This document shows positions 13,848 to 50,030 of a DNA stretch of 64,000 nt, one piece after another (positions within the stretch are counted from its first letter, which is position 1; every line of letters begins with the position of its first letter). The stretch spans positions 150,237-214,236 of the forward strand of contig JACJVW010000001.1 in NCBI GenBank assembly GCA_020637435.1. Direction: 5' to 3'. The notes under the pieces are model-generated. The model was not told the DNA's origin. It saw only the letters and a program-made list of their open reading frames with translations, and did not search any database. A program made the position numbers and the translations under genes. The stretch is from Candidatus Woesearchaeota archaeon (GTDB lineage Archaea > Nanobdellota > Nanobdellia > Woesearchaeales > JACJVW01).

Positions 13848-14471
13848 TCAGATTAAGCTGGCGCCAAACATGAAGAAAAGTACGATTGCAGTGTACTTGA
13901 CCCCTTGGCCAAGCAGGAAAAATGTATAGAACCTTGGTCGATTGTACTTAAAAACACCAAGCATCGCGCTTAGCGGCTGTGAGGGAAGCGGAAGCACATT
14001 AAAGACAAAGATGGCAAGTCCTCCATGCTTATTTATGACACCTTTTATCTTGTAGAATTGCTGAGGACCTATAATCTTCTTTGATATGCCCCCAAGCCGC
14101 ATGCCTATCAGATAATTCACCGAATACGCAACCGTCATCCCAAGCAGGTACATAGAGATAAGCACAGCAGGATGGTGGCCTGCATCGAAAAAAGTGATGA
14201 AAAGCAGTTCCATTGACATGATGACGAAAAACAAGCCGCCAAACATAGCGGCATAGAAGAGGCCGAGCTGAGTGCTTGCGGTGATCTCACCTATGATATG
14301 CCCGAAGAACATATTGATAGCAAGGATGATAGGACTCTCGGAATGCCGCAAGAACATAGCATAATATGTCACAAGTAATGCAAGGACAGTAACCACGATG
14401 ATAAGCATGACAGAGAACGTCCGCTTGCTCTTCTGATTGTAGGTGAACATAGCATCCGGTGCGTATTCCAT
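13848..14471 (-). CDS. DedA/YqaA-like membrane protein
   Basis: A polytopic protein with a NVLPLPSQPLSAMLGVF segment. It is the third member of this type within 8 kb. Confidence 0.45.
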   Translation of the reverse strand: MEYAPDAMFTYNQKSKRTFSVMLIIVVTVLALLVTYYAMFLRHSESPIILAINMFFGHIIGEITASTQLGLFYAAMFGGLFFVIMSMELLFITFFDAGHHPAVLISMYLLGMTVAYSVNYLIGMRLGGISKKIIGPQQFYKIKGVINKHGGLAIFVFNVLPLPSQPLSAMLGVFKYNRPRFYTFFLLGQGVKYTAIVLFFMFGASLI

Positions 14472-14516
14472 ATCCCCATAAGAAGGAACAGATTATTTAA
14501 TCCTTTGGACAAAAGA

Positions 14517-15464
14517 TTAGTTCTCATACGGAATCCGTAAAGACCAATTCTTAGAAATCCTGTTCAGTGAAACAATCTCAGGATTGACCGCAGCTAAGTT
14601 TTTGAGGGGTACATCATACTTTCGGGACAGACCATAGCCGGTATCGCCTGTAGCAACCGTATGCCGGGGAAGACCTGCAAAATAGTCCTTTGTACTTGGA
14701 TGTTGCTCAATAGTAAATCCATACTTCTCGGGATTATCATAAATTTCCTTAAATGCCAGAATCTTAAGGATATGATTTTTAGTCTCACTTGGAAGTTTTG
14801 CAAACTTTTCTTCATCACTTTTGCCATGGTGACGCTTCAGCATCCGGTCTGTACTCCCTTCACCCCAATTGTAACCTGCATTGATCAAGTAACTAGGACC
14901 TTCCTTATACTTCTCAGCAAGGTGAGTGACAAGAGCCGTACAAGCCGGGACTGCCTTGACAGGATTTCGTCGTTCGTCAATAGTATCGTTGACTGTCAAA
15001 CCCCACATCTTTGCTGTACCAGGCATGAATTGGCAGCTGCCAACCGCTCCCTTCTTGGAAGTTGTTGTATGGTCTCCACCATGACTCTCCCATGCAACAA
15101 GTGCCCTCATGTAGTTCATATCTACTGAAGCTTCATCGATCAGATCATCATATGCAGTAACCTGGGATAGCCAGCGTTGATATGTCTTCCGCTCCCAAGG
15201 ATTCCAACTAGCTATCTCTCTATCGACATCATCCTTTAGAAAGCTATCGATGTCATAGCTGGGCTGAGAGAATGATGAAATAAGCGTATCAATACTATCT
15301 CTGGTCGAAGGAGCAGCAGGTTTGACACTTGCATGTACTGAGCTGGCATGGTGTGTTCCTGAAGGCGGTGCTTGATATGTCCTCTGACTGACATAATCAG
15401 GGAGGTATGAAGCTCCCAGGATTACCATTGCGCCTAGAGCATTGAGCGGTCGTTCAAGTTTCAT
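14517..15464 (-). CDS. secreted/anchored lytic transglycosylase (SLT domain) with C-terminal LysM
   Basis: It has an N-terminal hydrophobic anchor. The SLT motifs are WES (catalytic Glu-Ser), GAVGSCQFMPGTA and AGYNWG. The C-terminal LysM reads HTVATGDTGYGLSRKYDVPLKNLAAVNP...LRIP. Confidence 0.75.
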   Translation of the reverse strand: MKLERPLNALGAMVILGASYLPDYVSQRTYQAPPSGTHHASSVHASVKPAAPSTRDSIDTLISSFSQPSYDIDSFLKDDVDREIASWNPWERKTYQRWLSQVTAYDDLIDEASVDMNYMRALVAWESHGGDHTTTSKKGAVGSCQFMPGTAKMWGLTVNDTIDERRNPVKAVPACTALVTHLAEKYKEGPSYLINAGYNWGEGSTDRMLKRHHGKSDEEKFAKLPSETKNHILKILAFKEIYDNPEKYGFTIEQHPSTKDYFAGLPRHTVATGDTGYGLSRKYDVPLKNLAAVNPEIVSLNRISKNWSLRIPYEN

Positions 15465-15528
15465 CAGAAGCAGCGAAAAAGAAATTGTTTATAAGCCTTT
15501 CGGTAAGTTGTTACTAAAGAGTAGTGAA

Positions 15529-16872
15529 TTATGCCTGTTGTTGATGACTTCGGATATACTCTTCCAGCGCAGAGATCATCGCAGTGCGTGAACCGGCTGC
15601 AGAAAGTTTTGATGAAAGCCATTCATTGTGGAACGTGTGGAAGATCCAGGCGGAGAAATCATTCTTGTAATGAGTCACATATTCCTGCATGGACTCATCA
15701 GAATTCTCTTTGAAGAACACGAGCAGCTGGCTAAGACTATTGATAGTCTGCCCGCTCTTAAGCTTGAAGTGAAGGTGTTCAGGTAGCACTTTCGTTTGAG
15801 CTACGGGTGGTTGACCATTAGGTACAGTCTGCGCTGAAGGAACACCTGGTGGTTGCTGCGAAACAGATCCCTGCAAGCTGGGCTGGACCATTACCGGCGA
15901 TGGAGCCGCTTGTTGAGGAGGGTATTGGTGTACAACTTGTTGCTGTGGCTGTTGCATAGCTTGTGGTGGAGCTTGCTGCATAGTTTGCTGTGGTTGCTGC
16001 TGCATAGCTTGTGGTGGAGCTTGCTGCATAGCCGAAGCATGCAGTGCCTCCTTCTCCTTCTTTAGCTTCTCGAACATGGCAGCGGCAGGCCCATGTTGCG
16101 CAGTCGCTGGATGTTGCTGCTCAACAGGTGCTTCCCCATGAGCGGATTGAACAGAACCCATGATATGACGGTCTGCAGTCTGATCCATCTCCAGATCCTC
16201 TTCAGAACGATCAAGGAACGGATTGAATTTGTTGGTCACCAGCTCATAGAGCGCTACAAACTTATCCATATTCTTCTCAAGTTCTTTTAGCTCAAGATAA
16301 TGCTTCTCCATGGTCTTCTGTAGCTTCTCACGGTCAGCGATCTCATCCTTGACCATCTTTTCCGTATCGTTGATACGGCTGTTCAGGTTATTGTCTATCT
16401 CGATGAGTTCCTTGACCTGTTGGATGACCATATTGATAAGCCGGGCATCGTCATAGCTCTCCTTAATCTCGCTGAGATATTGATTGATAGCGCTTTTCGA
16501 GATTGGTTTAGCACTCTCAACTGCTTCTTCCTGCTTCTCCAGCAGCACCCTCTCCAGAACGTCATCAGATTGGTCAGGAACCGCTCCACCGGAAGGGATA
16601 GTAGAAACAGTCTCTCTATCACCCTCTACTTCGACAACATTGACCTGCGGTGGTGCAGAAGGCGCCTGCTGCGAAGCTTGCGGTATTGGTGAAGAAGCCT
16701 GTTGTGAGGGCATCTGCTGAGATGCATAAGGTTGTGCCTGCGGGGGTTGTACTCCTTGAGCTTGTTGCGGCTGAGCCGATGCTCCACCCTCTAATGAAGA
16801 AAAACGTTGCTTTAGATCCTCGATATTAGGAGCACTCTCTTTTTTCTTGAATAGACCCACTTTTCCCCCCAA
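15529..16872 (-). CDS. Q/P-rich low-complexity protein with central FlaC_arch-like coiled coil
   Basis: The sequence FVALYELVTNKFNPFLD (nt 16201-16260) matches the YE.VsN..NPF hallmark of archaeal flagella accessory FlaC/D/E. It is flanked by QQAPPQAMQQ-type repeats, including a 30-nt DNA repeat at 15954-15983 and 16002-16031. Confidence 0.6.
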   Translation of the reverse strand: MGGKVGLFKKKESAPNIEDLKQRFSSLEGGASAQPQQAQGVQPPQAQPYASQQMPSQQASSPIPQASQQAPSAPPQVNVVEVEGDRETVSTIPSGGAVPDQSDDVLERVLLEKQEEAVESAKPISKSAINQYLSEIKESYDDARLINMVIQQVKELIEIDNNLNSRINDTEKMVKDEIADREKLQKTMEKHYLELKELEKNMDKFVALYELVTNKFNPFLDRSEEDLEMDQTADRHIMGSVQSAHGEAPVEQQHPATAQHGPAAAMFEKLKKEKEALHASAMQQAPPQAMQQQPQQTMQQAPPQAMQQPQQQVVHQYPPQQAAPSPVMVQPSLQGSVSQQPPGVPSAQTVPNGQPPVAQTKVLPEHLHFKLKSGQTINSLSQLLVFFKENSDESMQEYVTHYKNDFSAWIFHTFHNEWLSSKLSAAGSRTAMISALEEYIRSHQQQA

Positions 16873-16881
16873 AGGAATAAT

Positions 16882-17823
16882 TTAGTCAAGAGGCCAGATC
16901 CTGGTCTTGACATAGGTCACGACATCTGGCGCACGAGCACGTGCTTCCACAAGCCTGCCTTTCTCGGAAGACATGATGAACATAACATCCTCTCCTGTCT
17001 GAAGAGCATGATTGCTACGTGTCTTGATAAGCAGTTTCACTTTCTCCCGTGAATCAAGGATATAGTCGGAATTACCGATGACAACATCCATACAATAATA
17101 ATCCTCAGGCGGCAGGAAGTCGAATGAACACTCGCTTGCCACTCGTCGTATGACGACGATATCGCCATCGAACTCATTAACATTCGACCCAAGGCCGCTT
17201 ATCTCGATAGAACCATAAATGTCTTCACCTACAGTGATCGGTGTCTCCTCGACATCGATAGCCCCACCGCCAGTGACTGCTGTACCAAGCGAGATATTCT
17301 CCGAGATACCTTCGCTCGAAAGATTGAATACGACTACATCGACGACAGCGCCATCCATTATCATCATATAATCATCAGTGCCGTCTTCATCGAGATCCGC
17401 ACCGATGCTGACCTGCGAAGTAGTGAAGGTAGAGGCATTCACATCTATGTAATTATCATCACCGGGATAGTACAATTGCGCTGCACTATGCACCCGGTTG
17501 GACAAGAGTTCCACATCGAACCTCCTCATCTGCAAAGGGTCCGAACCTGGACTAAGCCTCATGAGGATTTCAAAGTTATTGAACTGCTCTGTAGTATAAT
17601 TTGAATCAGCCATGATGGAGAAAATATCTACTCCGTCCGTGATGGTCTTTCTAGCTTCCTGACCTACGAGCAAAGACCTTTGCTGAAGAACATTAGATGT
17701 AGAGATGAGTACTGCAGCCGCTACCGCCGCAACAAGGATGGTAGCGATGAAGATGATCAGGGTACCGATACCCATGATACCTCTTTTTTGGGGTTTAGCC
17801 CTACGGAATATCGAATAAGTCAT
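16882..17823 (-). CDS. archaellin/type IV pilin-like protein (class III signal peptide)
   Basis: KRGIMGIGTLIIFIATILVAAVAAAVLISTSNVLQQRS matches the archaeal flagellin N-terminal domain. The start ATG 17823 has TTTAAATA upstream on the minus strand (17852-17859). Confidence 0.75.
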   Translation of the reverse strand: MTYSIFRRAKPQKRGIMGIGTLIIFIATILVAAVAAAVLISTSNVLQQRSLLVGQEARKTITDGVDIFSIMADSNYTTEQFNNFEILMRLSPGSDPLQMRRFDVELLSNRVHSAAQLYYPGDDNYIDVNASTFTTSQVSIGADLDEDGTDDYMMIMDGAVVDVVVFNLSSEGISENISLGTAVTGGGAIDVEETPITVGEDIYGSIEISGLGSNVNEFDGDIVVIRRVASECSFDFLPPEDYYCMDVVIGNSDYILDSREKVKLLIKTRSNHALQTGEDVMFIMSSEKGRLVEARARAPDVVTYVKTRIWPLD

Positions 17824-17905
17824 TATCCTTTTATAACCCGGGGTTTGTTCATATTTAAATGTTTCGTTTCCATTGCACTGGCTGTAAGCATCATTTCTAG
17901 CGCTA

Positions 17906-20659
17906 TCAGGACTTATGAGGTTCATTTTGTTCCTCCCGTTCACTTTCAAAACCACGTACGACCATATTTCCTCTGACAAGAGCTGCACGAACCTCAGCGT
18001 ATGTAAAGTACTTCAGCAAAGTGTCCTTTACCTCATTGTCCGGTTTTTTCTGGAAATTCAACAATCTCACCATGTTGAGGATCGAATCCGTCTGGTCCTC
18101 CGTCTTGATCTTGTCTAGCTCTTGCATATTCTTGACAAGCATCTCTTGTATTGAGGTATCCGTTTTAGAAGTGAAGAGGTTCTTGAGGCGTTGTCTATAG
18201 ATATAACCGTAGTATCCCCCTACGCCCAGTACAAGGAATATGATGAAAAGCATGATGATGAGTCCGACCAGACCAAGAGAGCGTTTCGGCGTGTACGTGA
18301 TATCGACCACCACTGGAATTGTCTCTTTCTTGCCGAAAGCTTCCACCCCGATACTGAACGTCATCGTAAAATTTTCATTGTCAGGAACAAGATTGTGCAG
18401 CGTAACATTTCTCTCTTCATTCGGATTGAGATTGATGCTGTCCACAACTTCAAAATAACCGGTAGCTTGCGCTTCAATGGTGATATCAGGAGAAAGATCA
18501 CTGTCTAGATTATTCTTGATATAAAAGACAGGATGCTCTGAAGATGAGTTGATATAGATGCTCTGTGGTGAAAGCGTCAATGGATACGACGAGTATCTGG
18601 TGACATAGACAGATATAGGGAAAGTGTAATCATCATTGCCCGCAGTGCAGGTGAGTGTTCCCTTATACAAATCCTCTTTCGTCTCAGGCTGCGAGAAAAC
18701 AAAATTGAGGCTTGCGCTTCCGGAAGTTATCTGCACGGTCTGATCGCTGCTTATCTCGCCTGAATCCCATACCATCCTGCAGGTAAAGGCATGCGAGGAT
18801 TTCTTTGCCTGAAGCCGGATAGTGCCCCTCTTTCCGAACACCGTAAGCGTATCCTCGGAGGTGATATTAAGGAAGGGATAATCTGCGACAACAACAGGTA
18901 TCTTGGCTACTTCTTCTCCAAGATTTGAGACGGTCAAGTAACCCTCCACGCTGCCCGTCGGAGTCGCTTTTCTGGAGATCTGCACTGACCTGTAAGAATA
19001 TGAGGAGATAGTCTCTTTCTCATCGATAGTGATATAAGCAGGTAGTTCCCCTGACAGATTATATGAAAGTTCACGAAGATTGAATGTAGTGGGATTGAAC
19101 AAGCTGAATGTGACCTCTGCATTATCGACAACGACCACGCCAGGAACAGAAGTAAGCATGGGCCGCGCATAATTCTCTAGAACATAGAATGCGCTACCGA
19201 GAGCTACGGTATCATTGATGGTCAGGTAATCTTCCATATCGCTAAGCCATTCCTCAGCATCCGTAATAGGTTCATTTGACCGATTCATCCCAGAATACAA
19301 TAGACCTAGCACTCCGTGCGCGGTGTGATAAGCCTTCTCATTGATGCTGGCATTATCATCACCCCACGACCCCTCATTGTTCTGCATGAACAATATCCAG
19401 TTGCGAAGTTCATAGATATAACGGTCATACTGTTCACCCTCATCCATGTAGTCGAATCGTTCCATATAAGGAGTATAATCTGCGATGTATTCAGTCTCAC
19501 TCATATTATACATGGTTGCAAGGAACATACTGCTGCCGATCACATCTTCACTGCTGCCGAAATACGCACCCACGATATCTGAAAAATTGACTGCGGAAAA
19601 CATATACCGTTTTGCCTCACGGATATTCGGTTTGTGCAGGTCAAGCAGCGATGCGTAAGCGGTAGTCCTTTCATCGCAGGGCTCGCCTTTCTTGTTCGTC
19701 GACCAGCAAGCGCCGTTTATCTTGTACGTAAGATTATTTCCCGTATACCGGTACATAGGGATCCCGTATTTATCATAGATGACACCTTCAAAATTATCAT
19801 GGCTGATGACATAGATGGTAGAATCCATAGTTGCAGTAAAATTATAGATGCGTGCTGTATTATTGGGAAGACTGAAATTTGTATCAAGCAAATCCTTATC
19901 CTTAGCAACAAGAACAAAGTGAGCATTGTCGACAGGAGATTCAACTTCGACCGTCCACATATCCTCTTGCTGATAGTAGAATTGCTTGTTCTCGATCCAG
20001 TTGCGTGCGTCATTGACGACACGCCTGGCGTCATCAAAACCACTCTCGGTAAGGATAGCAAGAATCTCCATGGTCAGCGGTACATTGCAGGGTGATTGAG
20101 GGAAACATTTCTCTTCCTCATTCCTCTCCAGCTTTAGCCAGGTCATAGCCTGGTCTATCTCATAGTCGAAGATCTTGGGAAAATGCGAGAGCGCCCAGAT
20201 ACCGTACGTCGTATCCTTCGTCGTCCTCCAGCCACCATCACTATACTGGCTGCTGAGTACCTTGTCTAGCACCTTAGAATACTTGCTGACCAGCACATCC
20301 TGCGTCATCCTGTTATTCTCGCCATCCATCTCGTACTCAGCCGAAAGCCGAACGTGTGTACACGAAAAGTCTTCAAGATTGATAGAGCCAATCTGACAGT
20401 TGGAATCGCCCCATGGGTAGCTCACCAGATCCTCGAAATCATTGTCATCGATGCATATGACGGAAAGCTGCAAAGGGATATTTTCCTCCTCAAGACAGGC
20501 GATGAAAGTTATATCTTCTAAGGAAAGATAGGAAGGGACGCTAAGGTTCGACTCTATGTACGTCGTTATAGGCCGAACTAGATGGATACCCTGCTCAAGG
20601 GAAAAGACACAAGGCATAAGCACCATTATCAGTATTCCCACAAGTACGACAAACCTCAT
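17906..20659 (-). CDS. large surface protein with prenyltransferase/terpene-cyclase-like (QW) repeats, C-terminal TM and cytoplasmic tail
   Basis: The signal peptide is MRFVVLVGILIMVLMPCVFS, and its ATG 20659 is preceded by GAGGGGA; alternative starts are 20677 and 20689. QW-type motifs are SQYSDGGWRT and MQNNEGSWGDD. A TM helix (LVGLIIMLFIIFLVLGVGGYYGY) lies near the C-terminus. Confidence 0.7.
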   Translation of the reverse strand: MRFVVLVGILIMVLMPCVFSLEQGIHLVRPITTYIESNLSVPSYLSLEDITFIACLEEENIPLQLSVICIDDNDFEDLVSYPWGDSNCQIGSINLEDFSCTHVRLSAEYEMDGENNRMTQDVLVSKYSKVLDKVLSSQYSDGGWRTTKDTTYGIWALSHFPKIFDYEIDQAMTWLKLERNEEEKCFPQSPCNVPLTMEILAILTESGFDDARRVVNDARNWIENKQFYYQQEDMWTVEVESPVDNAHFVLVAKDKDLLDTNFSLPNNTARIYNFTATMDSTIYVISHDNFEGVIYDKYGIPMYRYTGNNLTYKINGACWSTNKKGEPCDERTTAYASLLDLHKPNIREAKRYMFSAVNFSDIVGAYFGSSEDVIGSSMFLATMYNMSETEYIADYTPYMERFDYMDEGEQYDRYIYELRNWILFMQNNEGSWGDDNASINEKAYHTAHGVLGLLYSGMNRSNEPITDAEEWLSDMEDYLTINDTVALGSAFYVLENYARPMLTSVPGVVVVDNAEVTFSLFNPTTFNLRELSYNLSGELPAYITIDEKETISSYSYRSVQISRKATPTGSVEGYLTVSNLGEEVAKIPVVVADYPFLNITSEDTLTVFGKRGTIRLQAKKSSHAFTCRMVWDSGEISSDQTVQITSGSASLNFVFSQPETKEDLYKGTLTCTAGNDDYTFPISVYVTRYSSYPLTLSPQSIYINSSSEHPVFYIKNNLDSDLSPDITIEAQATGYFEVVDSINLNPNEERNVTLHNLVPDNENFTMTFSIGVEAFGKKETIPVVVDITYTPKRSLGLVGLIIMLFIIFLVLGVGGYYGYIYRQRLKNLFTSKTDTSIQEMLVKNMQELDKIKTEDQTDSILNMVRLLNFQKKPDNEVKDTLLKYFTYAEVRAALVRGNMVVRGFESEREEQNEPHKS

Positions 20660-20703
20660 GCTCCCCTCTTTTCTCATTGATACCCTCATGTTGATTAATA
20701 AGT

Positions 20704-23112
20704 TTATTGGCTGATACCTTCAAGCTCTGTAGCTATCGTATGGATACGCTGATACAAAGTATGCTTGATCGCATCAGGCATACTCTCATACTTTTCATGC
20801 AATTTAGTGTATAGTTCCACTGCCTCCCTATGGAGCATAGGATCATACGAACCAAGCTTTCTCTGGAATCTGATCTTCTGCTCTAAATCAGCTGTGATAT
20901 CAAGGATCTCTTTGCGTTCAAGCTGAGTGCCAAGTGAACGTAGTATCGGTGTGAAGTCGCCGCGTTGCTCCGGTGCAAGGGAATCATACAATTCAAGCAC
21001 CGAAGGATAGTACGCGAACGCATCATCAAGTCTATTAGATTCTATCAGTGAGATTACCCTCTGCAAGAGCAAAGACAGCTGCTGTGCAGGAGGATTCTGT
21101 TGATAGAGCGAGTATTTTGAACCAGGGATAAATAGGGCACCCGCAAGGACGACAGCGATGATGACAAAGATATACGGTAGTATCGAGGCGCCTGCACGGA
21201 TACCTGACTGTACGCTTAGACCTGTGATCTCATTCTCTGGAAGGTCTTCATAATCAGGAACGACCAGAGAAGTGGTCTTCTTAAGGGTCTCAGTGAATAC
21301 CTTCGTCTTGACAACATAAGTATAAGGGTTTTTCGTTGTCCTGTAAAATTGCTCGCTAAGCTTTGAGAGGTCATCGGACATCACCGATAAACCAAGTTTC
21401 TGCGGCACATATTCTATATAGAATACATCATCCATCTCTCCATGGTCGAGATGAGCGATGTCCTTGGTCACATGGGTGATATATGATAATGTGCCGTTCC
21501 TGTAAGTCTTAGTTATTTCTTTTATGCTCAAGGTCAGGACAAAGTTCTCCAGATAGCCCGGCAATGAATCGTGGTAAGATGTCTTCTGTACAGATCCAAG
21601 AGTTGTATCGCTTGCAAGATAGTTTTCGATAATAGCCACAACGTCATCAGGAGGAAGATACTGTATGACCTCATGGTCAAGAGTAAGCTCAACCCGCTCA
21701 GGTATCTGCATACGTATAAGTTCAAGCGCAGTCTCAAGCTTTCTCATCTTATCATCATCAGTGCTCTTCTCAAAGGTGCTTGCAGCTGTTGAGACCTGCT
21801 GCTCAAGTGTATCAAGTTTCTTGACATCATCAGAGAGATAGGGCTGCAGTTCAGCGGAGAAGGAGGTATACATTTTACGGGCACGTTTGATATCCTGATA
21901 CAGAGCAGAGGTAAGACGTTCGTGAGAGGTATCCTTCTGGATAAGGAAACTGACCACAGAAGAGATACCTTCCCCTGCACCATCTGAACAATACGCCCTC
22001 GCCTTATAGCGGCCGGCGGCAAATCCCCGTACAATAAGTCCGTCCTGCTTAGCACTGACCTCATAGCCGAGAAGATCGCTTGGCACTATCCAGCCGCTGC
22101 CATCTGCAGTCTGCAGTTGGATATCGCAAGATTTGGCTGACTGATAGCTAAAAGCGACAACATCATCAACGAACACCTGTCCAGAACTTGGCTGTGTAAG
22201 AGTCACAGTATACATCTCTTTTGCAGCTACCTTCTCTGCTACAGGAAGCTTCTTCAGATAGACATCAAGATCCCATGGACTGTCCACAGAAAGTGGGACG
22301 ACCTCATTCTCATAACCATCCTTGCTAAAAGTAAAAGTGTAGTCGCCATTGGTAAGATTGAGTGTCTTCTTGCCATCCATATCATACCGGTGCTGTTGAC
22401 CGTCATGCTTGTACGTCAATACCACATCGTGCAAGAGTGAGTCTTCGAACATAGGGGAGAAGGTCACCAGATAAGTGGAGACCAAGTCCTCATCATCCCC
22501 TGCACTTACCGTCGTATGCACGACGCTTGAAAGGGAGAAAGTATCGGTAAACCCTACAGTCGCGTCTGCATATTCCATCGTCGCGTCAAGAGAATACTTG
22601 CCAAAATCAGTCAGCCGCACATACCAATCCTTACTGCTAAGATTCTTCGGATTATAGGTAATTGGATTCCCGGGACCGTTGATATAAAGCTTAATCTCCG
22701 AACCCAACGGAGCATCAAGCACCAGATGGACAAACTGGTCTTCATGGTAGTCATCAAGATCGACATCGACCATGAAGGAAGGAGTTTCTATGATAGTCAT
22801 GCTAAAGATAGCACTCTCCTCTACCTTTGTGGTGCCATTAAAAGCAAGTACCTTCCAGGAATATTCCCCTTCAGGTAACGCTAATGAAGTATAAGGAGAG
22901 GTATGGTTCGAAGCGTGCGCGAGCGAGGTCATAGCAACATCATTGTAGATAAGAAGGCCGTAGTGCGTAAAGGGCACAGTCGCGTCATTCCAGCCGAAAG
23001 TATGGCTCTGCTTGACCGTCTTCATTCCATTCTCAGGACTTATAAGACCGAATTGAGCGAAAGCTAGAGGACAGACGAGCAAAAATACCCCCAGCAACGC
23101 AAAAATTCTCAT
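20704..23112 (-). CDS. large surface protein with Ig/PEGA-like beta domains, C-terminal TM and helical cytoplasmic tail
   Basis: The signal peptide is MRIFALLGVFLLVCPLAFA. A PEGA-like segment reads GDYTFTFSKDGYENEVVPLSV. The TM helix is ILPYIFVIIAVVLAGALFI. Confidence 0.7.
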   Translation of the reverse strand: MRIFALLGVFLLVCPLAFAQFGLISPENGMKTVKQSHTFGWNDATVPFTHYGLLIYNDVAMTSLAHASNHTSPYTSLALPEGEYSWKVLAFNGTTKVEESAIFSMTIIETPSFMVDVDLDDYHEDQFVHLVLDAPLGSEIKLYINGPGNPITYNPKNLSSKDWYVRLTDFGKYSLDATMEYADATVGFTDTFSLSSVVHTTVSAGDDEDLVSTYLVTFSPMFEDSLLHDVVLTYKHDGQQHRYDMDGKKTLNLTNGDYTFTFSKDGYENEVVPLSVDSPWDLDVYLKKLPVAEKVAAKEMYTVTLTQPSSGQVFVDDVVAFSYQSAKSCDIQLQTADGSGWIVPSDLLGYEVSAKQDGLIVRGFAAGRYKARAYCSDGAGEGISSVVSFLIQKDTSHERLTSALYQDIKRARKMYTSFSAELQPYLSDDVKKLDTLEQQVSTAASTFEKSTDDDKMRKLETALELIRMQIPERVELTLDHEVIQYLPPDDVVAIIENYLASDTTLGSVQKTSYHDSLPGYLENFVLTLSIKEITKTYRNGTLSYITHVTKDIAHLDHGEMDDVFYIEYVPQKLGLSVMSDDLSKLSEQFYRTTKNPYTYVVKTKVFTETLKKTTSLVVPDYEDLPENEITGLSVQSGIRAGASILPYIFVIIAVVLAGALFIPGSKYSLYQQNPPAQQLSLLLQRVISLIESNRLDDAFAYYPSVLELYDSLAPEQRGDFTPILRSLGTQLERKEILDITADLEQKIRFQRKLGSYDPMLHREAVELYTKLHEKYESMPDAIKHTLYQRIHTIATELEGISQ

Positions 23113-23663
23113 AGCAACACCTCTAGCAATGGATTGTAGATCCTGTTGTAGACATCTTTATTCCTGTTGATATGATTAATAAAGTATTCTATCCCGAAAA
23201 GGACTGCATGCTTGCGGAAAAAGGATGCCTGTGACAGCAGACCTCGCAGTTCATCAGGATTGACTGCATGCACACCAGTTGCACGAAGCTTAGATTCCGT
23301 AACTGCATAGAGCTTTGAAGGAGTAGACAATTGCAGCATGACTGCCCGGGCGCCTGCATCGATGATATCATTCTTCTGCAGCAGAAACGAAGTGGTCGAA
23401 GCGGCGTAGCGCTTAGCGAGCAGTGCATGGGCATAGGCAAGCATACTGACCACCACAGGATGCTCAAGATTGAGTGCACAAAGGTGTGAACGGCCGACAG
23501 GTATCATCCGCAATTCTTCGCGATCCACCATCTCGTTGACCGTCTTATGGACATAGGGGTAATGAAGATCCAGAAGGGTGGCGATCTTATTGATACTGAA
23601 GAGGTCCATATAATTCTGCACATAGAGCGTTACTATCTTCAGTGTAAGATCCTTCTCGATCAT
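23109..23663 (-). CDS. winged-helix DNA-binding protein (putative regulator, first gene of the surface operon)
   Basis: The N-terminal segment FSINKIATLLDLHYPYVHKTVNEMVDREELRMIPVGR looks like a wHTH. It overlaps the next gene by 4 nt. Confidence 0.5.
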   Translation of the reverse strand: MIEKDLTLKIVTLYVQNYMDLFSINKIATLLDLHYPYVHKTVNEMVDREELRMIPVGRSHLCALNLEHPVVVSMLAYAHALLAKRYAASTTSFLLQKNDIIDAGARAVMLQLSTPSKLYAVTESKLRATGVHAVNPDELRGLLSQASFFRKHAVLFGIEYFINHINRNKDVYNRIYNPLLEVLL

Positions 23664-23665
23664 AG

Positions 23666-23820
23666 ATAGTACTATTTTGATATAACTTAATATATAAAAG
23701 TTACTATTAAATTACTTAATAATAGTACTATATATTTATTTACATAATTTAAATATTTTTCAATAACTATGGCAAATATTGCTTTACTATTAAGCTATCT
23801 ATTATATTTATTTAATAGAT
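23666..23820. promoter_or_regulatory. AT-rich divergent promoter region with palindromic candidate operator sites
   Basis: The palindrome ATAGTACTAT occurs at 23666-23675 and 23722-23731. GCAAATATTGC lies at 23772-23782. The inverted repeat ATCTATTA-N8-TAATAGAT lies at 23797-23820. Confidence 0.45.
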
Positions 23821-23867
23821 AATTATATTTTTTAATCTTGCAAAGACATATAAATGCAGCCAACCTC

Positions 23868-31662: not shown

Positions 31663-32118
31663 CTAAGAGCTCACCTTAAGTCTACGTACCTTAGGGATAA
31701 AATTCAACAGCTGATTTCCTTTGACTTTACCGCAGCCGATAAAATCCTCACCATGTTTAATCAGCACAAACCCCTTAAGCTCGCCAAAGTCACGCTTTAA
31801 GTCCTCACCGTTCATCCACGGAATCAAGTCTTCCTGAGTAAGCTGTAAAATATTCTTTGTCGCCGTCTCTCCAACAAGCTGCGCTCCTTCGATACTAAGC
31901 CGAAGTTCTCCGTTCGCAAGCTCACCGAAATAAACACCGATAGAATTAATCCGTAACCGTTCAATATCCACTCGCTCAATCTCTCGAGTCGTGATATGTA
32001 ATTTACCGTTCTTTTCAAGAAACAGATAATCCTCACTAATGCTTGCGCCCCATTGCTCTTCAATCATCTGACGAATTTCCTTAACCTGCTTCGAATTCAA
32101 AAACACTCCTGCAAACAT
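31663..32118 (-). CDS. Nip7-like PUA RNA-binding (ribosome biogenesis) protein
   Basis: The layout matches archaeal Nip7. Supporting segments are SIGVYFGELANGELRLSIEGAQL and KGFVLIKHGEDFIGCGKVKGNQLLNFIPKVRRL. Confidence 0.5.
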   Translation of the reverse strand: MFAGVFLNSKQVKEIRQMIEEQWGASISEDYLFLEKNGKLHITTREIERVDIERLRINSIGVYFGELANGELRLSIEGAQLVGETATKNILQLTQEDLIPWMNGEDLKRDFGELKGFVLIKHGEDFIGCGKVKGNQLLNFIPKVRRLKVSS

Positions 32119-32188
32119 AATACTTTAAAATTGGGGTGTATTTAAATTACTTTTGACTAGATACCCTGCATTTAGTTATACTATTAGT

Positions 32189-32632
32189 TCATTCAGACTC
32201 CTTATAAGCAATCCAGAGAGGATGTTTTAAAGCAGATTTATCGCACAAACGAAATATTCTACCAATTAGCGTAACTGGTTTCTTATCTGTACCATGATTG
32301 AGAATACAATCTGCAATTTCCATTTTATTATCTGTAAACGCTGATAACGAAAGATTGTTTATTAATTTCAAACTTACCTGAGCGTGGCCTTTATCAAGGA
32401 TAGTTTTTCCAATATCATGGAATAATGCAGAGATTATACCAATAGCCTGCCAATTGGGACAGATTTCATCTATCTGCGTTTTGTAACAACAAGAAGTGAA
32501 TTCATCAAGAACGCATAAAGAATGCGTACGAATTGTACTTTTTTGGGTATGATTCTGAAATTCGAAAGAATCAAATATTTTCAAACATTCGCGGTACAAT
32601 ATTTGGTTTTGCTCACTAAAAAGATTTCTCAT
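32189..32632 (-). CDS. HD-domain phosphohydrolase (small, stand-alone)
   Basis: The HD motif ALFHDIGK is present, with upstream His (THSL) and downstream His and Asp (ILNHG, LCDKSA). It overlaps the radical SAM gene by 4 nt. Confidence 0.7.
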   Translation of the reverse strand: MRNLFSEQNQILYRECLKIFDSFEFQNHTQKSTIRTHSLCVLDEFTSCCYKTQIDEICPNWQAIGIISALFHDIGKTILDKGHAQVSLKLINNLSLSAFTDNKMEIADCILNHGTDKKPVTLIGRIFRLCDKSALKHPLWIAYKESE

Positions 32633-33606
32633 TTATGAACCTCCCAAAACTTGTTTTCATGATAAGAATCTTGAAAAACATCAATTAAATACCTCAATCC
32701 AATCTGAAACATCTTTGGGTGAGATGCATCAAGATAGACAGGTGATAATCTACAAGGTATTAACTGCTTATCAGAACTGTAAAAAATAGTATACAATCCT
32801 TCCTGGCAAGGAAGTGAAGAGCAAGAATCACAGAAATCGTCATGATACCTTGTTCCACTAGTGCTGTCCTTAATTCTAACAGTGTGTGATGAATTCTTTA
32901 ATTCATATTCAAGACTAGGTATCCCAAAAAAACGAGTGTATGTAATTTGCCGTGCATGCTTACTTCTTTTTTTTACTTGATTCCTAGCTCTTTCTAACGG
33001 AGTGTACAAAGACCCCCATTGTCCTTTATTACAGGTAGTTGAGTACATATCAAATAGCTTCAAATTAATTCCCAGCTCCGATGTCAAATCCAAGAGACTT
33101 TCAACTTGTCCAAGATTTTCTTCGGTAACCACCATTGCTAAACGATTTAAAATACCCCTTTTTGCAGTTTCTCTTATACTATTCATTGTCCTATCATACA
33201 TCCTCTCAGAAACACCACAAATAGAAGCAAACATATTTTTCTCAACTGCATCAAGACTGATTCTCAGATCTAGCCTCTTCAAAGAACTAAGATCTTCAAT
33301 ATATTTATGAATCATACTCCCATTTGTTGCCAGAGCATATTCCATATCAGTTTGGGTATCCAGGAATTTCATAACATCAATTGTGCCTTTGGCAATCAAA
33401 GGTTCACCCCCTGTAAGTCGAATTTTTGAGATCCCCTCCTGCTGCGCAATTTTCAATTTGGCGCAAAGATCATCTACATCAATGTCTTCTGAATTTGTTC
33501 CAAAACCTTCACCCATACCTCCCTCACCATCAGGACTACAATAATTACACCTGAAATTACACTTGTTAGTTACTGCAACCGTTAAATAAGGGACTTTGTG
33601 AATCAT
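32629..33606 (-). CDS. MoaA-like radical SAM enzyme
   Basis: The CX3CX2C motif lies in VAVTNKCNFRCNYCSP. IRLTGGEPL and ALATNG follow. The C-terminal Cys cluster FCDSCSSLPCQEG...LIPC parallels the auxiliary cluster region of MoaA. Confidence 0.8.
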   Translation of the reverse strand: MIHKVPYLTVAVTNKCNFRCNYCSPDGEGGMGEGFGTNSEDIDVDDLCAKLKIAQQEGISKIRLTGGEPLIAKGTIDVMKFLDTQTDMEYALATNGSMIHKYIEDLSSLKRLDLRISLDAVEKNMFASICGVSERMYDRTMNSIRETAKRGILNRLAMVVTEENLGQVESLLDLTSELGINLKLFDMYSTTCNKGQWGSLYTPLERARNQVKKRSKHARQITYTRFFGIPSLEYELKNSSHTVRIKDSTSGTRYHDDFCDSCSSLPCQEGLYTIFYSSDKQLIPCRLSPVYLDASHPKMFQIGLRYLIDVFQDSYHENKFWEVHK

Positions 33607-34487
33607 GCTCTTTCACCTAGTAAAGTGTGAAACCTCTTCCCCAAATGGGGATCCAGTTTAGTCGCATAAAAGAAACTTACGCTTCTCAGTATCCTGTTTT
33701 CCTCATTATAGTCAATTGCTTCAGAAATAAAGTTGAGATAATCTTGAATTTCTGGGGAATATGATCCGATAATCTCTTGATTCTCAAACCTAGCCAACAT
33801 TCGTTTTCTATGCAAATCTCTTAGAGATTCATATGCATCATCTTGACTAGAAATAGTTGGATATATGTCCTTCAAAAAACTGTATCTCTTCAATAATTTT
33901 CTCCTAATTTTTATTGGGTCATTAATTATATCGATGAGCTTATACCTAGTAGTTGTATTCTTTACAAAAAACTCAAAATTTTTCCCTTCAAAGTACTGAA
34001 AATTGTCGTTTGTATTAGAAGGCAATACACACCCTAAACATTCTATCTCAGTCTGAAAAACATGATCAAAAAAAGATCTCCCCAAGTTTGATACAGTAAT
34101 ACTGGAATAATGTTTAGAATCATTTTTTGTAAGACGGGTTATGGAATCAAAATCCACCAAATGATCAAGACCAAGAAGTTCATAATCAAACTGCCGGTGA
34201 AAAAACTCATCAGCAGAATATTCATTTGGAGAATCGTGTAGCTCCCTGATAGCATCCCTCCTTCTTTTGCGTTGCATTCGTAACTGGTCACGATATGGTT
34301 TATCTGATAATCTAGATGAAAGATAAAGGTACATTGGTATACTATCAACAAGAATTTGAGTGGAACCTCTATTGTAATTCAATTTAACAGAATTCGGAAG
34401 GTCATATACCTTCTTTATTTCAGACTGATGAAGGTCTAACATAAGTTCTCTGAGTGGTTTGTTTCCTTGGTAATTTTTCTGGTTCAT
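33603..34487 (-). CDS. hypothetical protein (first gene of AT-rich island)
   Basis: The start is ATG 34487, where the track used GTG 34502. It overlaps the radical SAM gene by 4 nt. No motif was recognised. Confidence 0.55.
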   Translation of the reverse strand: MNQKNYQGNKPLRELMLDLHQSEIKKVYDLPNSVKLNYNRGSTQILVDSIPMYLYLSSRLSDKPYRDQLRMQRKRRRDAIRELHDSPNEYSADEFFHRQFDYELLGLDHLVDFDSITRLTKNDSKHYSSITVSNLGRSFFDHVFQTEIECLGCVLPSNTNDNFQYFEGKNFEFFVKNTTTRYKLIDIINDPIKIRRKLLKRYSFLKDIYPTISSQDDAYESLRDLHRKRMLARFENQEIIGSYSPEIQDYLNFISEAIDYNEENRILRSVSFFYATKLDPHLGKRFHTLLGERA

Positions 34488-34746
34488 GATCAATAATCTC
34501 ACAGTAATCCCTTAGCTTTAATGTAGATTATCAAGAAGAAATTGAAGAATTTTCAAAACCAGAAAATTATATTGAAAATCTTTGGAACAAGAGTCCAGAA
34601 GAAATAACAATTAAGCAACAGTAGAAATGACCGAGTTGAATAGAATTGGGTAGTTAGTATGCTTAATATCCCAAAATTGATTTGCTCAATTTATAATAGC
34701 ACTACTTTGACTAAACAAAATCTATGAAGTGATTCCTTAAGTTAAG

Positions 34747-37616: not shown

Positions 37617-38387
37617 TCAAATGAAGAAAAGATAGTAAAGAGTGATTAGCAACACGAAAAAGATATTGACCAACAACCCTTTCTGCAGCTCATTACGTTT
37701 GCCGCTAAGCGCAAAATAGGCGAAGAAGACTGCGCAGTATCCCCCAAGGTGCGCCCAATGACCTATGCCGTCATTGACTGGATAGAGCACACCACTGATA
37801 TCAGACCAGATAGCAATCCAGGCTACCGCGAGCACCGGCATAGGAAATCCAAACAGCATATACGTCAGATAGAACGGCTCTATAAGGATAGCGACAGCGA
37901 TTATACCTGCGATAGCCCCGCTCGCCCCAAGACCTCCCTGGCCGGCCAATGCACTGAACACATCAGCGATAAGCGCAGACATGAAGTACACAAGGAGATA
38001 CTTCACGGGCGATATCTTCCGCTCAAGTATTCGACCGAAGATGTAGAGAAAGAGCATATTTCCCAGAAGGTGTAATAGGTTCGCATGCAAAAACCACGAC
38101 GACACGATAGGTACCACATTAAAAGTCAGTAGATCAGCGGGCATGAAGATAAGCTCACGCAACTGCTCTTCACTCAGATAGAAGATCTCCAGCAGATACA
38201 CAATACTGTTCAGGAAGATAAGCGCAACTGTTAGCTTAGGTTCGAAGAGGAAGACGCCTAGTTCGCGAAGCGGTTTCGTCAATTCATCGGCGCCTCGTTT
38301 ACCAAACAGCACAAGGATAAGCAGGAACGGCAGCTTAAGGACAAACACCAGTTGCCTCCAGACGAATCCAGACTCGCTCTCTATCAT
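37617..38387 (-). CDS. rhomboid-family intramembrane serine protease
   Basis: HANLLHLLGNMLFLYIFG is followed by the catalytic GASGAIAGI and AHLGG. Confidence 0.85.
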   Translation of the reverse strand: MIESESGFVWRQLVFVLKLPFLLILVLFGKRGADELTKPLRELGVFLFEPKLTVALIFLNSIVYLLEIFYLSEEQLRELIFMPADLLTFNVVPIVSSWFLHANLLHLLGNMLFLYIFGRILERKISPVKYLLVYFMSALIADVFSALAGQGGLGASGAIAGIIAVAILIEPFYLTYMLFGFPMPVLAVAWIAIWSDISGVLYPVNDGIGHWAHLGGYCAVFFAYFALSGKRNELQKGLLVNIFFVLLITLYYLFFI

Positions 38388-47876: not shown

Positions 47877-48581
47877 GTACCGCAGAAATCCCTCATCCTC
47901 AACTTCCCTAAATGGTAACTCATAATTCAGGACACGTTCAAAGGTGATGCCCTCCATGCCTTCTGCTCCCTGGCTCTGCAAATAAGCAAATGCCGCAGAC
48001 ATATTTCGGCCGGTCTTCATAAAATCATCAACCACCAGCACGCGTTCACCTTCATAGTCAACATCAAATGCTACCTTAAACTTTCGTTGAGCACCAACAA
48101 CCTCTCGATACTGATAGTAGCCAAAGTTTACAGGCAGACCAAGCCGTGTAGCAAGAACGATAGCAGCCTCATTCCCGCCAGAATGCACAGCCAACACTGA
48201 ACTGAATGCTCCTGAGGGAAACATATCCTCAAGATAATCATAGTCACCCCGGTCATACTTCACAGACGAATGCCCCGGTAAGGGAAGCAAGGAGGATGTA
48301 TCAAACCCAAGCTTAAATCCATTTCCCTTGTAAAACTCATCCAACTGATACGCAAGATCCCCCAGCATTTCATTTAGTGGACCACGAAGCCGTTCATTCT
48401 GCCAGTCATGGTCGCATTCCCTGCATGTAAGAGACTCTATTCCCATCCCAAACAGTGCTAACGCAGCATCCTTACGGACCCAGGGAGAACTATGCAAAAG
48501 CAGTCCGACAAGTGAGTCTGCACGCTGATAAGAGACTGACTCTTGTTCATCATACAGACCATATAGCTCTATGAGATTCAT
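47844..48581 (-). CDS. phosphoribosyltransferase-domain protein with N-terminal extension
   Basis: The type I PRTase PRPP loop is ERVLVVDDFMKTGRNM. The N-terminal part is of unknown function. Its 3' end overlaps the argS 3' end by 33 nt. Confidence 0.55.
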   Translation of the reverse strand: MNLIELYGLYDEQESVSYQRADSLVGLLLHSSPWVRKDAALALFGMGIESLTCRECDHDWQNERLRGPLNEMLGDLAYQLDEFYKGNGFKLGFDTSSLLPLPGHSSVKYDRGDYDYLEDMFPSGAFSSVLAVHSGGNEAAIVLATRLGLPVNFGYYQYREVVGAQRKFKVAFDVDYEGERVLVVDDFMKTGRNMSAAFAYLQSQGAEGMEGITFERVLNYELPFREVEDEGFLRYSHLLKDIDTE

Positions 48582-49249
48582 AGATACCGCTCCATCTTTC
48601 TGCTAGGAAGGACTTTTTTACCGCCAATAGTATGTGTAAACAAATCCGTATCCCCTATATAATCAAAACAAAACATCGCTTGTGCGTGATCACCTACCTC
48701 AACTATATACGCTTCAGAATCCTTAAACAGACTGCAGGTTAACCCATCTTCAACTCGAGACTTCAGTACCTTGCTTATGTCATGCACCCTGTCGACTATC
48801 ATTTTTCCGTGCAAGTGATCGAATTCATGCATTGCATACGCTGCATTATCACCTTCAAGAATACCTTTGTAAAGATCGCCGCTAAGAAGATATGCCTTCA
48901 CATGAACACGCTGTGGTCTTTTCAAGATAACACCAAAAGCGCTTCTCTCATCCGTCTCGATTGAACCGCACTCCTCATACCGTACAAGTTGAGGTTGACC
49001 CCATATCTCAGGATTAACAAGCACCAGATCCTCATCAAGCGTGCCTCGCACAATCATAACAGATAAAAGATAATCATCGATAGACGAACCTTCAGGAGGT
49101 AAGACGTTCTGTGGAGTTATCGCGGCAAGACCATAGTCATCAAGAGCTCTCCTCAGATGGTCGACTACAGGCCAGATTTGTGGCAGATACATAACCTGCT
49201 TTGCCGGCCTGCGAAGAATGTCTTCATCCCAAAAAATACTCGTCAACAT
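48578..49249 (-). CDS. def: peptide deformylase-like metallohydrolase
   Basis: The three PDF motifs appear in diverged form: GLAAITPQN (G.G.AA.Q), EECGSI (EGCLS) and HEFDHLHG (HE.DH). Confidence 0.6.
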   Translation of the reverse strand: MLTSIFWDEDILRRPAKQVMYLPQIWPVVDHLRRALDDYGLAAITPQNVLPPEGSSIDDYLLSVMIVRGTLDEDLVLVNPEIWGQPQLVRYEECGSIETDERSAFGVILKRPQRVHVKAYLLSGDLYKGILEGDNAAYAMHEFDHLHGKMIVDRVHDISKVLKSRVEDGLTCSLFKDSEAYIVEVGDHAQAMFCFDYIGDTDLFTHTIGGKKVLPSRKMERYL

Positions 49250-49526: not shown

Positions 49527-50030
49527 ATGGAGTTCGCATTCATCTACAATAAATTCACGGCTTCATTAACTGTTGCGCTAATAGTAGCTACCATATACCT
49601 GCTGTTGCATAGACCTAAGATAGTCGATGTGCATAGATACATGTTGACAGCGGTGCTCGGTCTTGGTTCACTCGCATCCGTCCTGATATACTCTGAGATC
49701 ATTGGATACGAACCCTGTTCATTGTGCTGGACACAAAGAATCATCCTCATCGGTATCGTAGCTATCTCATTGCTGCCAAAGTGGACCTTTTCAGATTGGT
49801 CAATACGGATAATCTCTGCCGCAGGCATCATCATCTCATTATACCAGTACTACCTGCAGATGTCGCAGACAGGTTCTTTCTGCACCGTGGGCGAGACTTC
49901 CTGCAGTGCTATTTTTGTCAAAGAGCTCGGATTCATCACCATACCGTTCATGGCGCTCGTCCTCTTCAGTTTTGTGCTCGTTGTACATATCCCAAAAAAG
50001 TCAAGGCCCTCGTACATAAAGCTTAAATAA
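49527..50030 (+). CDS. DsbB/BdbC-like disulfide bond formation membrane protein
   Basis: There are four TM helices. CSLCW (CxxC) sits in the first loop and a second Cys pair (FCTVGETSC) in the second loop. Confidence 0.6.
   Translation: MEFAFIYNKFTASLTVALIVATIYLLLHRPKIVDVHRYMLTAVLGLGSLASVLIYSEIIGYEPCSLCWTQRIILIGIVAISLLPKWTFSDWSIRIISAAGIIISLYQYYLQMSQTGSFCTVGETSCSAIFVKELGFITIPFMALVLFSFVLVVHIPKKSRPSYIKLK

Follow-up and report, generated by a model that had tools for sequence, protein, structure and literature searches.

A probable filament-side archaellum locus with a clade-specific gene trio in a Woesearchaeota archaeon

What is an archaellin gene doing among genes for giant surface proteins and a putative murein-cleaving enzyme, with no archaellum motor gene nearby? 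This question is raised by a stretch of 64,000 nucleotides (nt), hereafter the window, of contig JACJVW010000001.1 (assembly GCA_020637435.1, positions 150,237 to 214,236), from a Candidatus Woesearchaeota archaeon. Six open reading frames (ORFs), here called g1 to g6, were confirmed on the minus strand and span 14517-23663. A sequence-only reading had joined all six into one attachment or penetration apparatus aimed at cells with a murein wall. Our answer is a different one. We consider it probable that these genes make up the filament side of an archaellum (arl/fla) gene set that is split between loci, accompanied by a clade-specific accessory trio, g1-g3; the organism is a DPANN archaeon of the Woesearchaeota type. 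The genes are as follows.

g1, 23109..23663, minus strand: 184 aa, cytoplasmic, with a winged helix-turn-helix (wHTH)-like N-terminal region and a conserved C-terminal domain
g2, 20704..23112, minus strand: 802 aa, type-I membrane protein with beta-sandwich domains
g3, 17906..20689, minus strand: 927 aa, type-I membrane protein with an alpha/alpha toroid and immunoglobulin (Ig)-like domains
g4, 16882..17823, minus strand: archaellin (ArlB/FlaB-type), 313 aa from the ATG at 17823; the full ORF extends to 17988
g5, 15529..16872, minus strand: ArlC/D/E-like protein, 447 aa, TTG start
g6, 14517..15464, minus strand: protein with an SLT and a C-terminal LysM domain, 315 aa; a neighbour outside the conserved module

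These coordinates bear out the six-gene order and tight spacing described earlier. A 4-nt overlap points to translational coupling of g1 and g2, and the gaps from g2 to g6 measure 14, 82, 9 and 64 nt.

Filament genes and motor genes

The description of g4 as an archaellin or pilin-like protein stands, since the cut-offs of both PF01917 Arch_flagellin (E=2.2e-20, 74 bits against 29.5) and TIGR02537 (27.1 against 20) are exceeded. It also matches NF006325 (E=1e-26). A class III signal peptide is present (KRG, followed by IMGIGTLIIFIATILVAAVAAAVLISTS) and the N-terminus is of archaellin type (KRG, followed by IMGIGTLIIFIATILVAAVAAAVLI). We rejected a long form of 368 aa, as it overlaps g3 and the ATG at 17823 gives an archaellin-type N-terminus like that of relatives.

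The product of g5 had been called a Q/P-rich FlaC-domain protein, and this too is upheld, with 31.8 bits against PF05377 FlaC_arch (cut-off 27.8). Q and P make up 21% of its residues, and its linkers are Q/P-rich. The FlaC_arch coiled coil lies at 166-219 and a conserved DUF5752-like domain forms the C-terminus. This is an archaellum motor-associated component of the ArlC/D/E type. The low-complexity linkers of this protein differ greatly in length among lineages; in one relative (L014, 14565-16781) it has grown to 738 aa through long Q/P-rich repeats, with a run of N inside the repeat.

Relatives of the locus were collected through g3. A set of 29 full-length proteins, together with 17 loci from species-representative genomes, yielded 21 distinct loci. 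The closest clade consists of four independent lineages (L007/8, L009/14, L015 and L016), whose g3 proteins are 44-48% identical to ours, and in all four the order is g1-g2-g3-X-archaellin-FlaC-like. Here X stands for an archaellin-like protein, divergent in sequence and 296-369 aa long, that has a hydrophobic helix near its N-terminus. Individual sizes include 369 aa in L007/L008, 297 aa in L009/L014, 306 aa in L016 and 373 aa in a further locus, L010; the N-terminus is basic. X could be a minor or proximal filament subunit. The archaellins 3′ of g3 in relatives share 51-65% identity with g4. Homologues of g5 come after the archaellin in L004/L005, L008, L009/L014, L015 and L016, with 45-62% identity in the FlaC region, and a g5 homologue lies 3′ of the archaellin in six of the 21 distinct loci.

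Where, then, is the motor? The earlier statement that the window holds no FlaH/I/J, prepilin peptidase or secretion ATPase gene is correct. A tblastn search of the 64 kb with the ArlG, ArlH and ArlI proteins of a relative gave no match. Neither T2SSE, T2SSF, a KaiC-like FlaH nor Peptidase_A24 appeared in Pfam scans of 38 window ORFs, which we supplemented with precomputed Pfam entries for the genes of overlapping Logan contigs. The lack of a motor holds for the window but not for two relatives, one of which encodes it adjacent to the module and the other on another contig.

The adjacent case is seen in one Woesearchaeota lineage represented by two assemblies (L004/L005/L017). A co-directional string, g2-g3-archaellin-archaellin-FlaC-like-(82 aa), is followed there by a divergent 191-aa gene and then by ArlG/F-ArlH-ArlI-ArlJ. 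The ArlH of this lineage scores 220 bits against an NCBIfam cut-off of 215, and the archaellin inside this complete arl operon is 51% identical to g4. The ArlI/FlaI gene (L004 18911-22441, also in L005 and L017) is interrupted in the part for the ATPase core, after AFQAMQ, by an intein of ~630 aa; its product has 1176 aa, compared with ~548 aa in intein-free orthologues.

The separate case comes from the clade of the window itself. In the metagenome-assembled genome (MAG) GCA_051819765.1, g1-g2-g3-X-archaellin-FlaC lies on JBNJGT010000037.1 (L016). The motor set, namely a homologue of the 191-aa gene, ArlG/F, ArlH, ArlI and ArlJ, lies on JBNJGT010000019.1 (L031). A further motor locus (L032) is laid out in the same way, and in every motor locus that we saw among relatives ArlG/F-ArlH-ArlI-ArlJ stay together. 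The gene directly 5′ of ArlG/F, divergent in all three motor loci, encodes 191-195 aa (L004 16980-17555, L031 8036-8623 and L032 446-1027, all minus strand). These proteins share 48-49% mutual identity and show only a weak HTH match (MsvR-like). They are candidates for a regulator or for a missing stator partner, the latter because only one ArlF/G-like gene is present in these motor loci. The accessions of the g3 homologue (USN45763.1) and of ArlI (USN46017.1) in the complete genome CP060219.1 differ by 254. As such numbers usually run in gene order, we take the two to be roughly 250 genes apart.

The organism of the window very likely follows the same pattern. Searching with the ArlI of a relative, its intein removed, we found the Ca. 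Woesearchaeota protein P0103 (MCB9362133.1). It is an ArlI, 65% identical to the query, with 691.8 bits against NF058587 (cut-off 550). P0103 is recorded on a contig of 782,209 bp, and so is the g2 of the window. From this equal size we infer that the contig of the window itself very likely encodes ArlI, outside the window.

In our view the locus belongs to the euryarchaeal-type archaellum gene set (arlB - arlC/D/E - arlF - arlG - arlH - arlI - arlJ). An archaellin gene followed by a FlaC-domain gene is the order found here as well, and in the relative L004/L005 it continues into ArlG/F, ArlH, ArlI and ArlJ in the classical order. The window thus has the archaellin and ArlC/D/E features, whereas contiguity with ArlF/G-ArlH-ArlI-ArlJ is lacking; any motor gene would lie more than 14 kb from its filament genes in one direction and more than 40 kb in the other. 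It also differs by the extra genes g1-g3 at the head of the filament locus, and the motor loci of relatives differ by their single ArlF/G-like gene. Makarova et al. 2016 (PMC4858521) note that the archaellin and motor genes sometimes occupy separate loci. In Woesearchaeota, annotations include arl genes (PMC8407392), and flaB ranks among their most highly expressed genes in situ (PMC11606122).

A comparison among DPANN archaea is the cultivated Nanobdella aerobiophila, which has arl genes, a highly expressed archaellin and functional swimming archaella (PMC11104419). Like the organism of the window it is a DPANN archaeon with archaellum genes; it is a member of another taxonomic order, and g1-g3 homologues are not known from it. 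The filament of N. aerobiophila is corrugated in its proximal segment and bears thorns of unknown composition (PMC11104419).

The accessory trio g1, g2 and g3

The g3 family has 29 full-length homologues with 34-48% identity, nearly all of them from Woesearchaeota, Nanobdellota or Nanoarchaeota. In every related locus with enough upstream sequence g2 stands directly 5′ of g3, and a g1 homologue precedes the pair in 13 of the 21 distinct loci. An archaellin gene lies within 10 kb of g2-g3 in 11 of the 21, and in eight it is the next or next-but-one gene. These counts support g1-g5 as a conserved, functionally linked surface-structure cluster. We found no paper that describes the trio. Several of the records that carry the module (L014, L017, L021, L022, L024, L025 and L030) are third-party annotation MAGs titled ‘uncultured Methanosarcinales archaeon’, and one g3 homologue is labelled Thorarchaeota. 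The g3 product of L017 is identical to P0010, which is named Candidatus Woesearchaeota at NCBI. The Methanosarcinales and Thorarchaeota labels are probably mislabelled bins.

How well is g1 described as a wHTH protein? Its family comprises 12 homologues of 26-35% identity, found at the same place 5′ of g2-g3. The protein has no transmembrane (TM) helix. Its N-terminal 65 residues resemble a winged helix, and three residues of its C-terminal domain, H152, G157 and E159, are invariant. All matches of the family to wHTH entries in Pfam are below threshold (PF25212 in eight of the 12 members, and also HTH_24, TrmB and Rrf2), which lends weak support to the earlier call. There was no NCBIfam match, and a g1 profile gave nothing significant against the PDB. 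Archaellum regulators such as EarA (arCOG03422, PF07381), ArnR/ArnR1 and arCOG03067 are likewise small proteins of (w)HTH type near archaellin genes, with repeated promoter words. We rejected an assignment of g1 to EarA, given that PF07381 remained unmatched at E<=0.1 in all 12 members and NCBIfam gave no match. The family matches no curated regulator at that level either, and it differs in having an extra C-terminal domain and in being coupled to the gene for a giant membrane protein.

The product of g2 is, as described earlier, an 802-aa signal-peptide protein with Ig/PEGA-like domains, a C-terminal TM helix and a cytoplasmic tail. After the signal peptide come several beta-sandwich domains that resemble PKD and CarboxypepD_reg, and a central helical segment. 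The TM helix (~636-669) precedes a conserved cytoplasmic tail of ~135 aa with the motif YP..LY..L.P..R.EL. A word-indexed homologue search with g2 returned only the query itself. We therefore picked its relatives by position in the related loci, and an alignment with 18 such positional homologues shows 14-26% identity. The profile built in this way matches PKD/PEGA-type domains in the PDB.

The QW-repeat toroid and the TM-anchor topology claimed for g3 are likewise borne out, at a size of 927 aa instead of ~918 aa. The N-terminal half consists of a signal peptide, a Cys-rich beta-sandwich (34-135), a toroid in two parts (140-235 and 340-507) and a beta-sandwich inserted between them (243-323). 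The C-terminal half has three Ig-like domains (513-797), a TM helix (~808-830) and a conserved cytoplasmic helical tail. QW motifs are conserved at 148 (QYSDGGW) and 436 (QNNEGSW), and the ectodomain has ten conserved cysteines. In an AlphaFold2 (AF2) model with a predicted local distance difference test score (pLDDT) of 85 the protein folds into an alpha/alpha toroid and beta-sandwich domains. The family profile matches squalene-hopene cyclase in the PDB (E=3e-9) over ~50 residues. Foldseek searches with the whole chain returned generic Ig-repeat proteins, alpha-2-macroglobulins and S-layer proteins at TM-scores of 0.1-0.2, and these model-based matches support domain types rather than a family.

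Two enzymatic or reactive identities were tried for g3 and rejected. It is not a terpene or squalene-hopene cyclase; there is no DxDD, the whole part from signal peptide to TM helix is extracytoplasmic, and the Pfam score is 15.4 bits where 26.1 are needed. It is not a thioester protein or alpha-2-macroglobulin; CxEQ/CGEQ is absent and the alpha-2-macroglobulin matches in Foldseek (4rtd, 6tav) have TM-scores of ~0.1. The toroid is non-catalytic.

The cytoplasmic tails of g2 and g3 (~95-135 aa) deserve attention. In g3, N872 is invariant and E865, I870, F879, Q880, I887 and F895 are nearly so. Such conservation in both proteins indicates one or more cytoplasmic partners.

The closest known counterparts of g2 and g3 are S-layer-like Ig-fold proteins in the arl loci of Methanococcales (arCOG05057) and Thermococcales, which have been proposed to adapt the envelope to the filament (bioRxiv 10.64898/2026.04.22.720090; PMC4858521). 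Like g2 and g3, proteins of the arCOG05057 type are large, secreted, multi-Ig and adjoin archaellin or arl genes, a likeness in kind. The pair g2/g3 differs by being a pair, by the C-terminal TM helix and conserved tail, by the QW toroid of g3 and by the coupled wHTH-like gene.

Promoters, g6 and the rest of the window

Does the trio share a transcript with the filament genes? A TATA box stands exactly 29-30 nt before the ATG in 13 of 54 window genes, while the other 13 matches are spread over the 52 remaining upstream positions. This distance implies mostly leaderless mRNAs. The box reads TTWWAWA, often after AAAGG, and the full signature is AAAGG-(A/C)TTAWAWA. Examples are found at 15486-15499 and 14492-14505, and upstream of 37617-38387 and of 49527-50030. 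The signature helps to call starts and operons in the lineage of the window. The features that concern us here are as follows.

g1/Nre divergent promoter region, 23664..23837: AT-rich
TATA-like box TTAAATAT, 17851..17858, minus strand: 35 nt 5′ of the archaellin ATG
g6 BRE/TATA (transcription factor B recognition element and TATA box) AAGGCTTATAAACA, 15486-15499, minus strand: at -30
g7, 13848-14471: 207-aa multi-TM protein downstream of g6

TATA boxes occur at -30 for g6, -29 for g7, -35 for g4 and -34/-36 for g1. None was found for g2, g3 and g5, each of which is tightly coupled to the gene before it. From this distribution and coupling we predict four transcription units, [g1-g2-g3], [g4-g5], [g6] and [g7]. 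These promoter calls are consensus matches, made by analogy with the -29/-30 pattern of the window, and on that analogy TTAAATAT is a probable separate promoter for g4-g5.

The g1/Nre region holds further repeated words. A perfect 10-bp palindrome, ATAGTACTAT, occurs twice (23666-23675 and 23722-23731), one copy sitting between the TATA box and the ATG of g1, and the 10-mer TTAATAGTAA also occurs twice (23701-23710 and 23784-23793). Within the 64 kb both words are confined to this region, for chance expectations of 0.07 and 0.15 matches, respectively. TAGTATA-like words appear again 5′ of g1 in the loci of relatives; the palindrome is not strictly conserved. We regard the copies of ATAGTACTAT and TTAATAGTAA as candidate operator sites.

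We now turn to g6. Calling it a murein hydrolase with SLT and LysM domains was right, as it scores above the cut-offs of PF01464 SLT (E=8.7e-15, 54.8 bits, cut-off 21.3) and PF01476 LysM (E=4e-6, 27.1 bits, cut-off 20.9); its NCBIfam match is MltD-like. It has the motifs E126-S127, GxxQFM and AGYNWG, and in an alignment of 13 family members E126, S127, G142, Y198 and N199 are invariant and Q145 nearly so. These residues make it plausibly an active family-1 lytic transglycosylase. SLT-domain proteins of Woese- and Pacearchaeota have been described and proposed to act on bacterial walls (Castelle et al. 2021, PMC8204110). With these and with bacterial MltD, g6 shares the SLT domain with its Glu-Ser motif and the LysM domain. 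The fam00969 proteins of that study reach 3000 aa, compared with 315 aa for g6, and from MltD g6 differs by its single LysM and by an archaeal promoter of leaderless type.

Its position beside the filament genes is another matter. Across 30 related loci (496 kb) neither g6 nor its neighbour g7 has a homologue, even by tblastn at E<=5. The six-gene order is therefore conserved for g1-g5 but not for g6. After the FlaC-like gene come opposite-strand housekeeping genes in L014 and motor genes in L004. An exhaustive search of 1.8 billion cluster representatives found no g6 relative above 39% identity, the nearest being at 30-39%. Five relatives have a name, and four of these are SLT proteins from Nanoarchaeota/DPANN. 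A metagenome scan with the g6 sequence alone found no relative. With a five-sequence alignment as query it led to 80 loci (861 kb) with g6 relatives, in which there was no archaellin, FlaC-like, g1, g2 or g3 gene; the best of these loci is on a low-GC, DPANN-like contig with unrelated neighbour genes. Hence g6, predicted to be transcribed independently, is a neighbour and not a component of the filament system, and its adjacency is seen in one genome. It would be a secreted or anchored murein hydrolase of the Woese-/Pacearchaeota type.

The gene g7 weakly resembles a VTT/DedA-type protein. One relative (28% identity) lies on a DPANN-like metagenome contig (L033 6912-7442), 2.5 kb 5′ of an SLT+LysM gene, so g6 and g7 may be loosely linked.

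Some observations concern the window as a whole. It codes for CDC48, Nre and XPD of archaeal type, and its sequence is also present in two Logan assemblies (runs SRR12358676 and SRR15882951). Scanning it for Rfam families and tRNAs gave no matches. Four genes or gene groups are of bacterial type, namely a peptide deformylase, a DsbB-like disulfide oxidoreductase, a cyclopropane-fatty-acyl-phospholipid synthase (CMAS) and a split MMPL/RND transporter (48578-49249, 49527-50030, 56517-57476 and 57565-59864). The DsbB-like gene fits the many conserved cysteines in the g3 ectodomain. A low-GC island at 32001-34000 (GC 0.348, against ~0.45 elsewhere in the window) coincides with a gene of the radical-SAM type (32629-33606) and an ORF of 299 aa that has no annotation (33603-34502). 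This island may have been acquired horizontally.

What the locus would do

On our preferred reading, g1-g3 are accessory to the archaellum and the locus would work as follows. The archaellin g4 would be cut by a class III signal peptidase and polymerized by ArlI/ArlJ, all encoded elsewhere in the genome. The g5 protein would serve as the ArlC/D/E-type cytoplasmic protein associated with the motor. Around or near the archaellum, g2 and g3 would form an envelope-embedded collar, anchor or adhesin, their tails contacting cytoplasmic partners such as g1, the ArlC-like protein or the motor. Finally, the repeated palindromes in the promoter of g1 would probably be the sites by which g1 itself regulates the locus. 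The trio could also do more than this. It may be a contact-sensing and anchoring module coupled to the archaellum, in which g2 and g3 bind a ligand on a host or surface, their tails control g1, and g1, acting on the palindromic operators, switches the cell between a swimming state in search of a host and attachment; we put this forward as a tentative idea, and a rather doubtful one.

Could the filament itself, though built by the archaellum machinery, be mainly a fibre for adhesion or host contact? The g2 and g3 proteins would then sense host contact or act as adhesins, their tails would signal to g1, and archaellin expression would be switched between free and attached cells. DPANN archaella have been tied to a free stage in which the cell seeks a host, and N. 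aerobiophila cells that are attached rarely bear them (PMC11104419), and archaellins have been suggested to mediate DPANN host attachment (PMC11606122). The coupling of g1 to g2, the palindromes unique to the g1 promoter and the conserved tails all fit, as do toroid and Ig-like ectodomains, which are typical ligand-binding modules. However, the signalling step is hypothetical. DNA binding by g1 is predicted from matches below threshold, the palindrome varies among relatives and none lies 5′ of g4. We consider this account unlikely.

A second alternative takes g1-g3 for a general envelope set, of S-layer or adhesin type and with its own regulator, whose position next to archaellin reflects the clustering of highly expressed surface genes. 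The Foldseek matches of g3 include S-layer proteins (SbsB 4aq1, 7ptp), g2 evolves fast, as S-layer proteins do, and the g1-g3 promoter is apparently separate from that of g4-g5. A comparable pair exists beside the motor locus L031 (3873-7903, minus strand), where a MarR-like wHTH gene (186 aa) overlaps the gene for a 1162-aa Big_9 surface protein; its layout is that of g1-g2, with no detectable homology. In addition, ten of the 21 loci have no archaellin in the available flank. Against this, adjacency in the remaining 11 is far above a chance level of a few percent per locus, a rough figure, not computed, which assumes one to three archaellin genes per ~1 Mb genome. In L004 the g2-g3 pair stands inside an uninterrupted, co-directional string of arl genes. 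Conserved cytoplasmic tails are untypical of simple S-layer subunits, and the g1-g3 family is limited to a sub-clade, whereas an S-layer is needed by all. A general envelope set is thus improbable.

The weakest proposal, an integrated, motor-less device in which filament, giant adhesins and a murein-cleaving enzyme act together on a bacterial host, draws on six co-directional genes with short gaps, a plausibly active transglycosylase (invariant E126-S127, LysM), the bacterial-host action proposed for Woese-/Pacearchaeota SLT proteins (PMC8204110) and the absence of motor genes from the window, but is very improbable given that g6 has its own -30 promoter and is missing from all 30 related loci, that the loci of its relatives lack archaellum genes, that the same module belongs to a full arl operon in L004, that related genomes, and very probably this one too, encode the motor elsewhere, and that g5 is itself motor-associated. 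The penetration apparatus of the sequence-only reading fails for the same reasons, with nothing in its favour beyond the adjacency of g6 in one genome.

Several points weigh against a filament-side archaellum locus with an accessory trio. The g2-g3 module is contiguous with motor genes in one lineage only, and with ten loci showing no archaellin in their flanks the trio may be a surface module whose link to the archaellum is loose. Members of the g3 family number in the tens, compared with thousands of matches for ArlI of the Woesearchaeota type; thus archaella in general do not include the trio. Gene X, which relatives have between g3 and the archaellin, is missing from the window. The AF2 model of g1 from its single sequence reaches a pLDDT of 35, too low to support its predicted wHTH-like fold. 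The link between P0103 and the window rests on the equal size of 782,209 bp and not on contig sequence; no gene for ArlF/G, ArlH, ArlJ or the signal peptidase was seen in the 64 kb of this genome that was read. As for g6, read-through from g5 is possible, as the 64-nt gap has no clear oligo-T terminator and the promoters are consensus matches only. Furthermore, the nearest g3 relative is only 48% identical, so the adjacency of g6 could be assessed at long evolutionary distance only.

How much of this is new? The archaellum and the SLT proteins of DPANN archaea are already known; the clade-specific g1-g3 accessory module beside a split locus is undescribed. The earlier impression of an undescribed system thus holds for the trio but not for the archaellin and FlaC-like genes, which belong to the known archaellum.

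A false lead, that of a filament that pierces murein and has no motor, has been removed in this work. At least one Woesearchaeota clade divides its archaellum genes between a filament locus and a motor locus, and annotation pipelines that require co-localized genes can therefore miss or misread such systems. What remains is a testable puzzle, a conserved trio genetically tied to archaellin genes in uncultivated DPANN archaea. If the trio anchors the archaellum, or couples host contact to motility, it bears on how these tiny symbionts find and hold their hosts.

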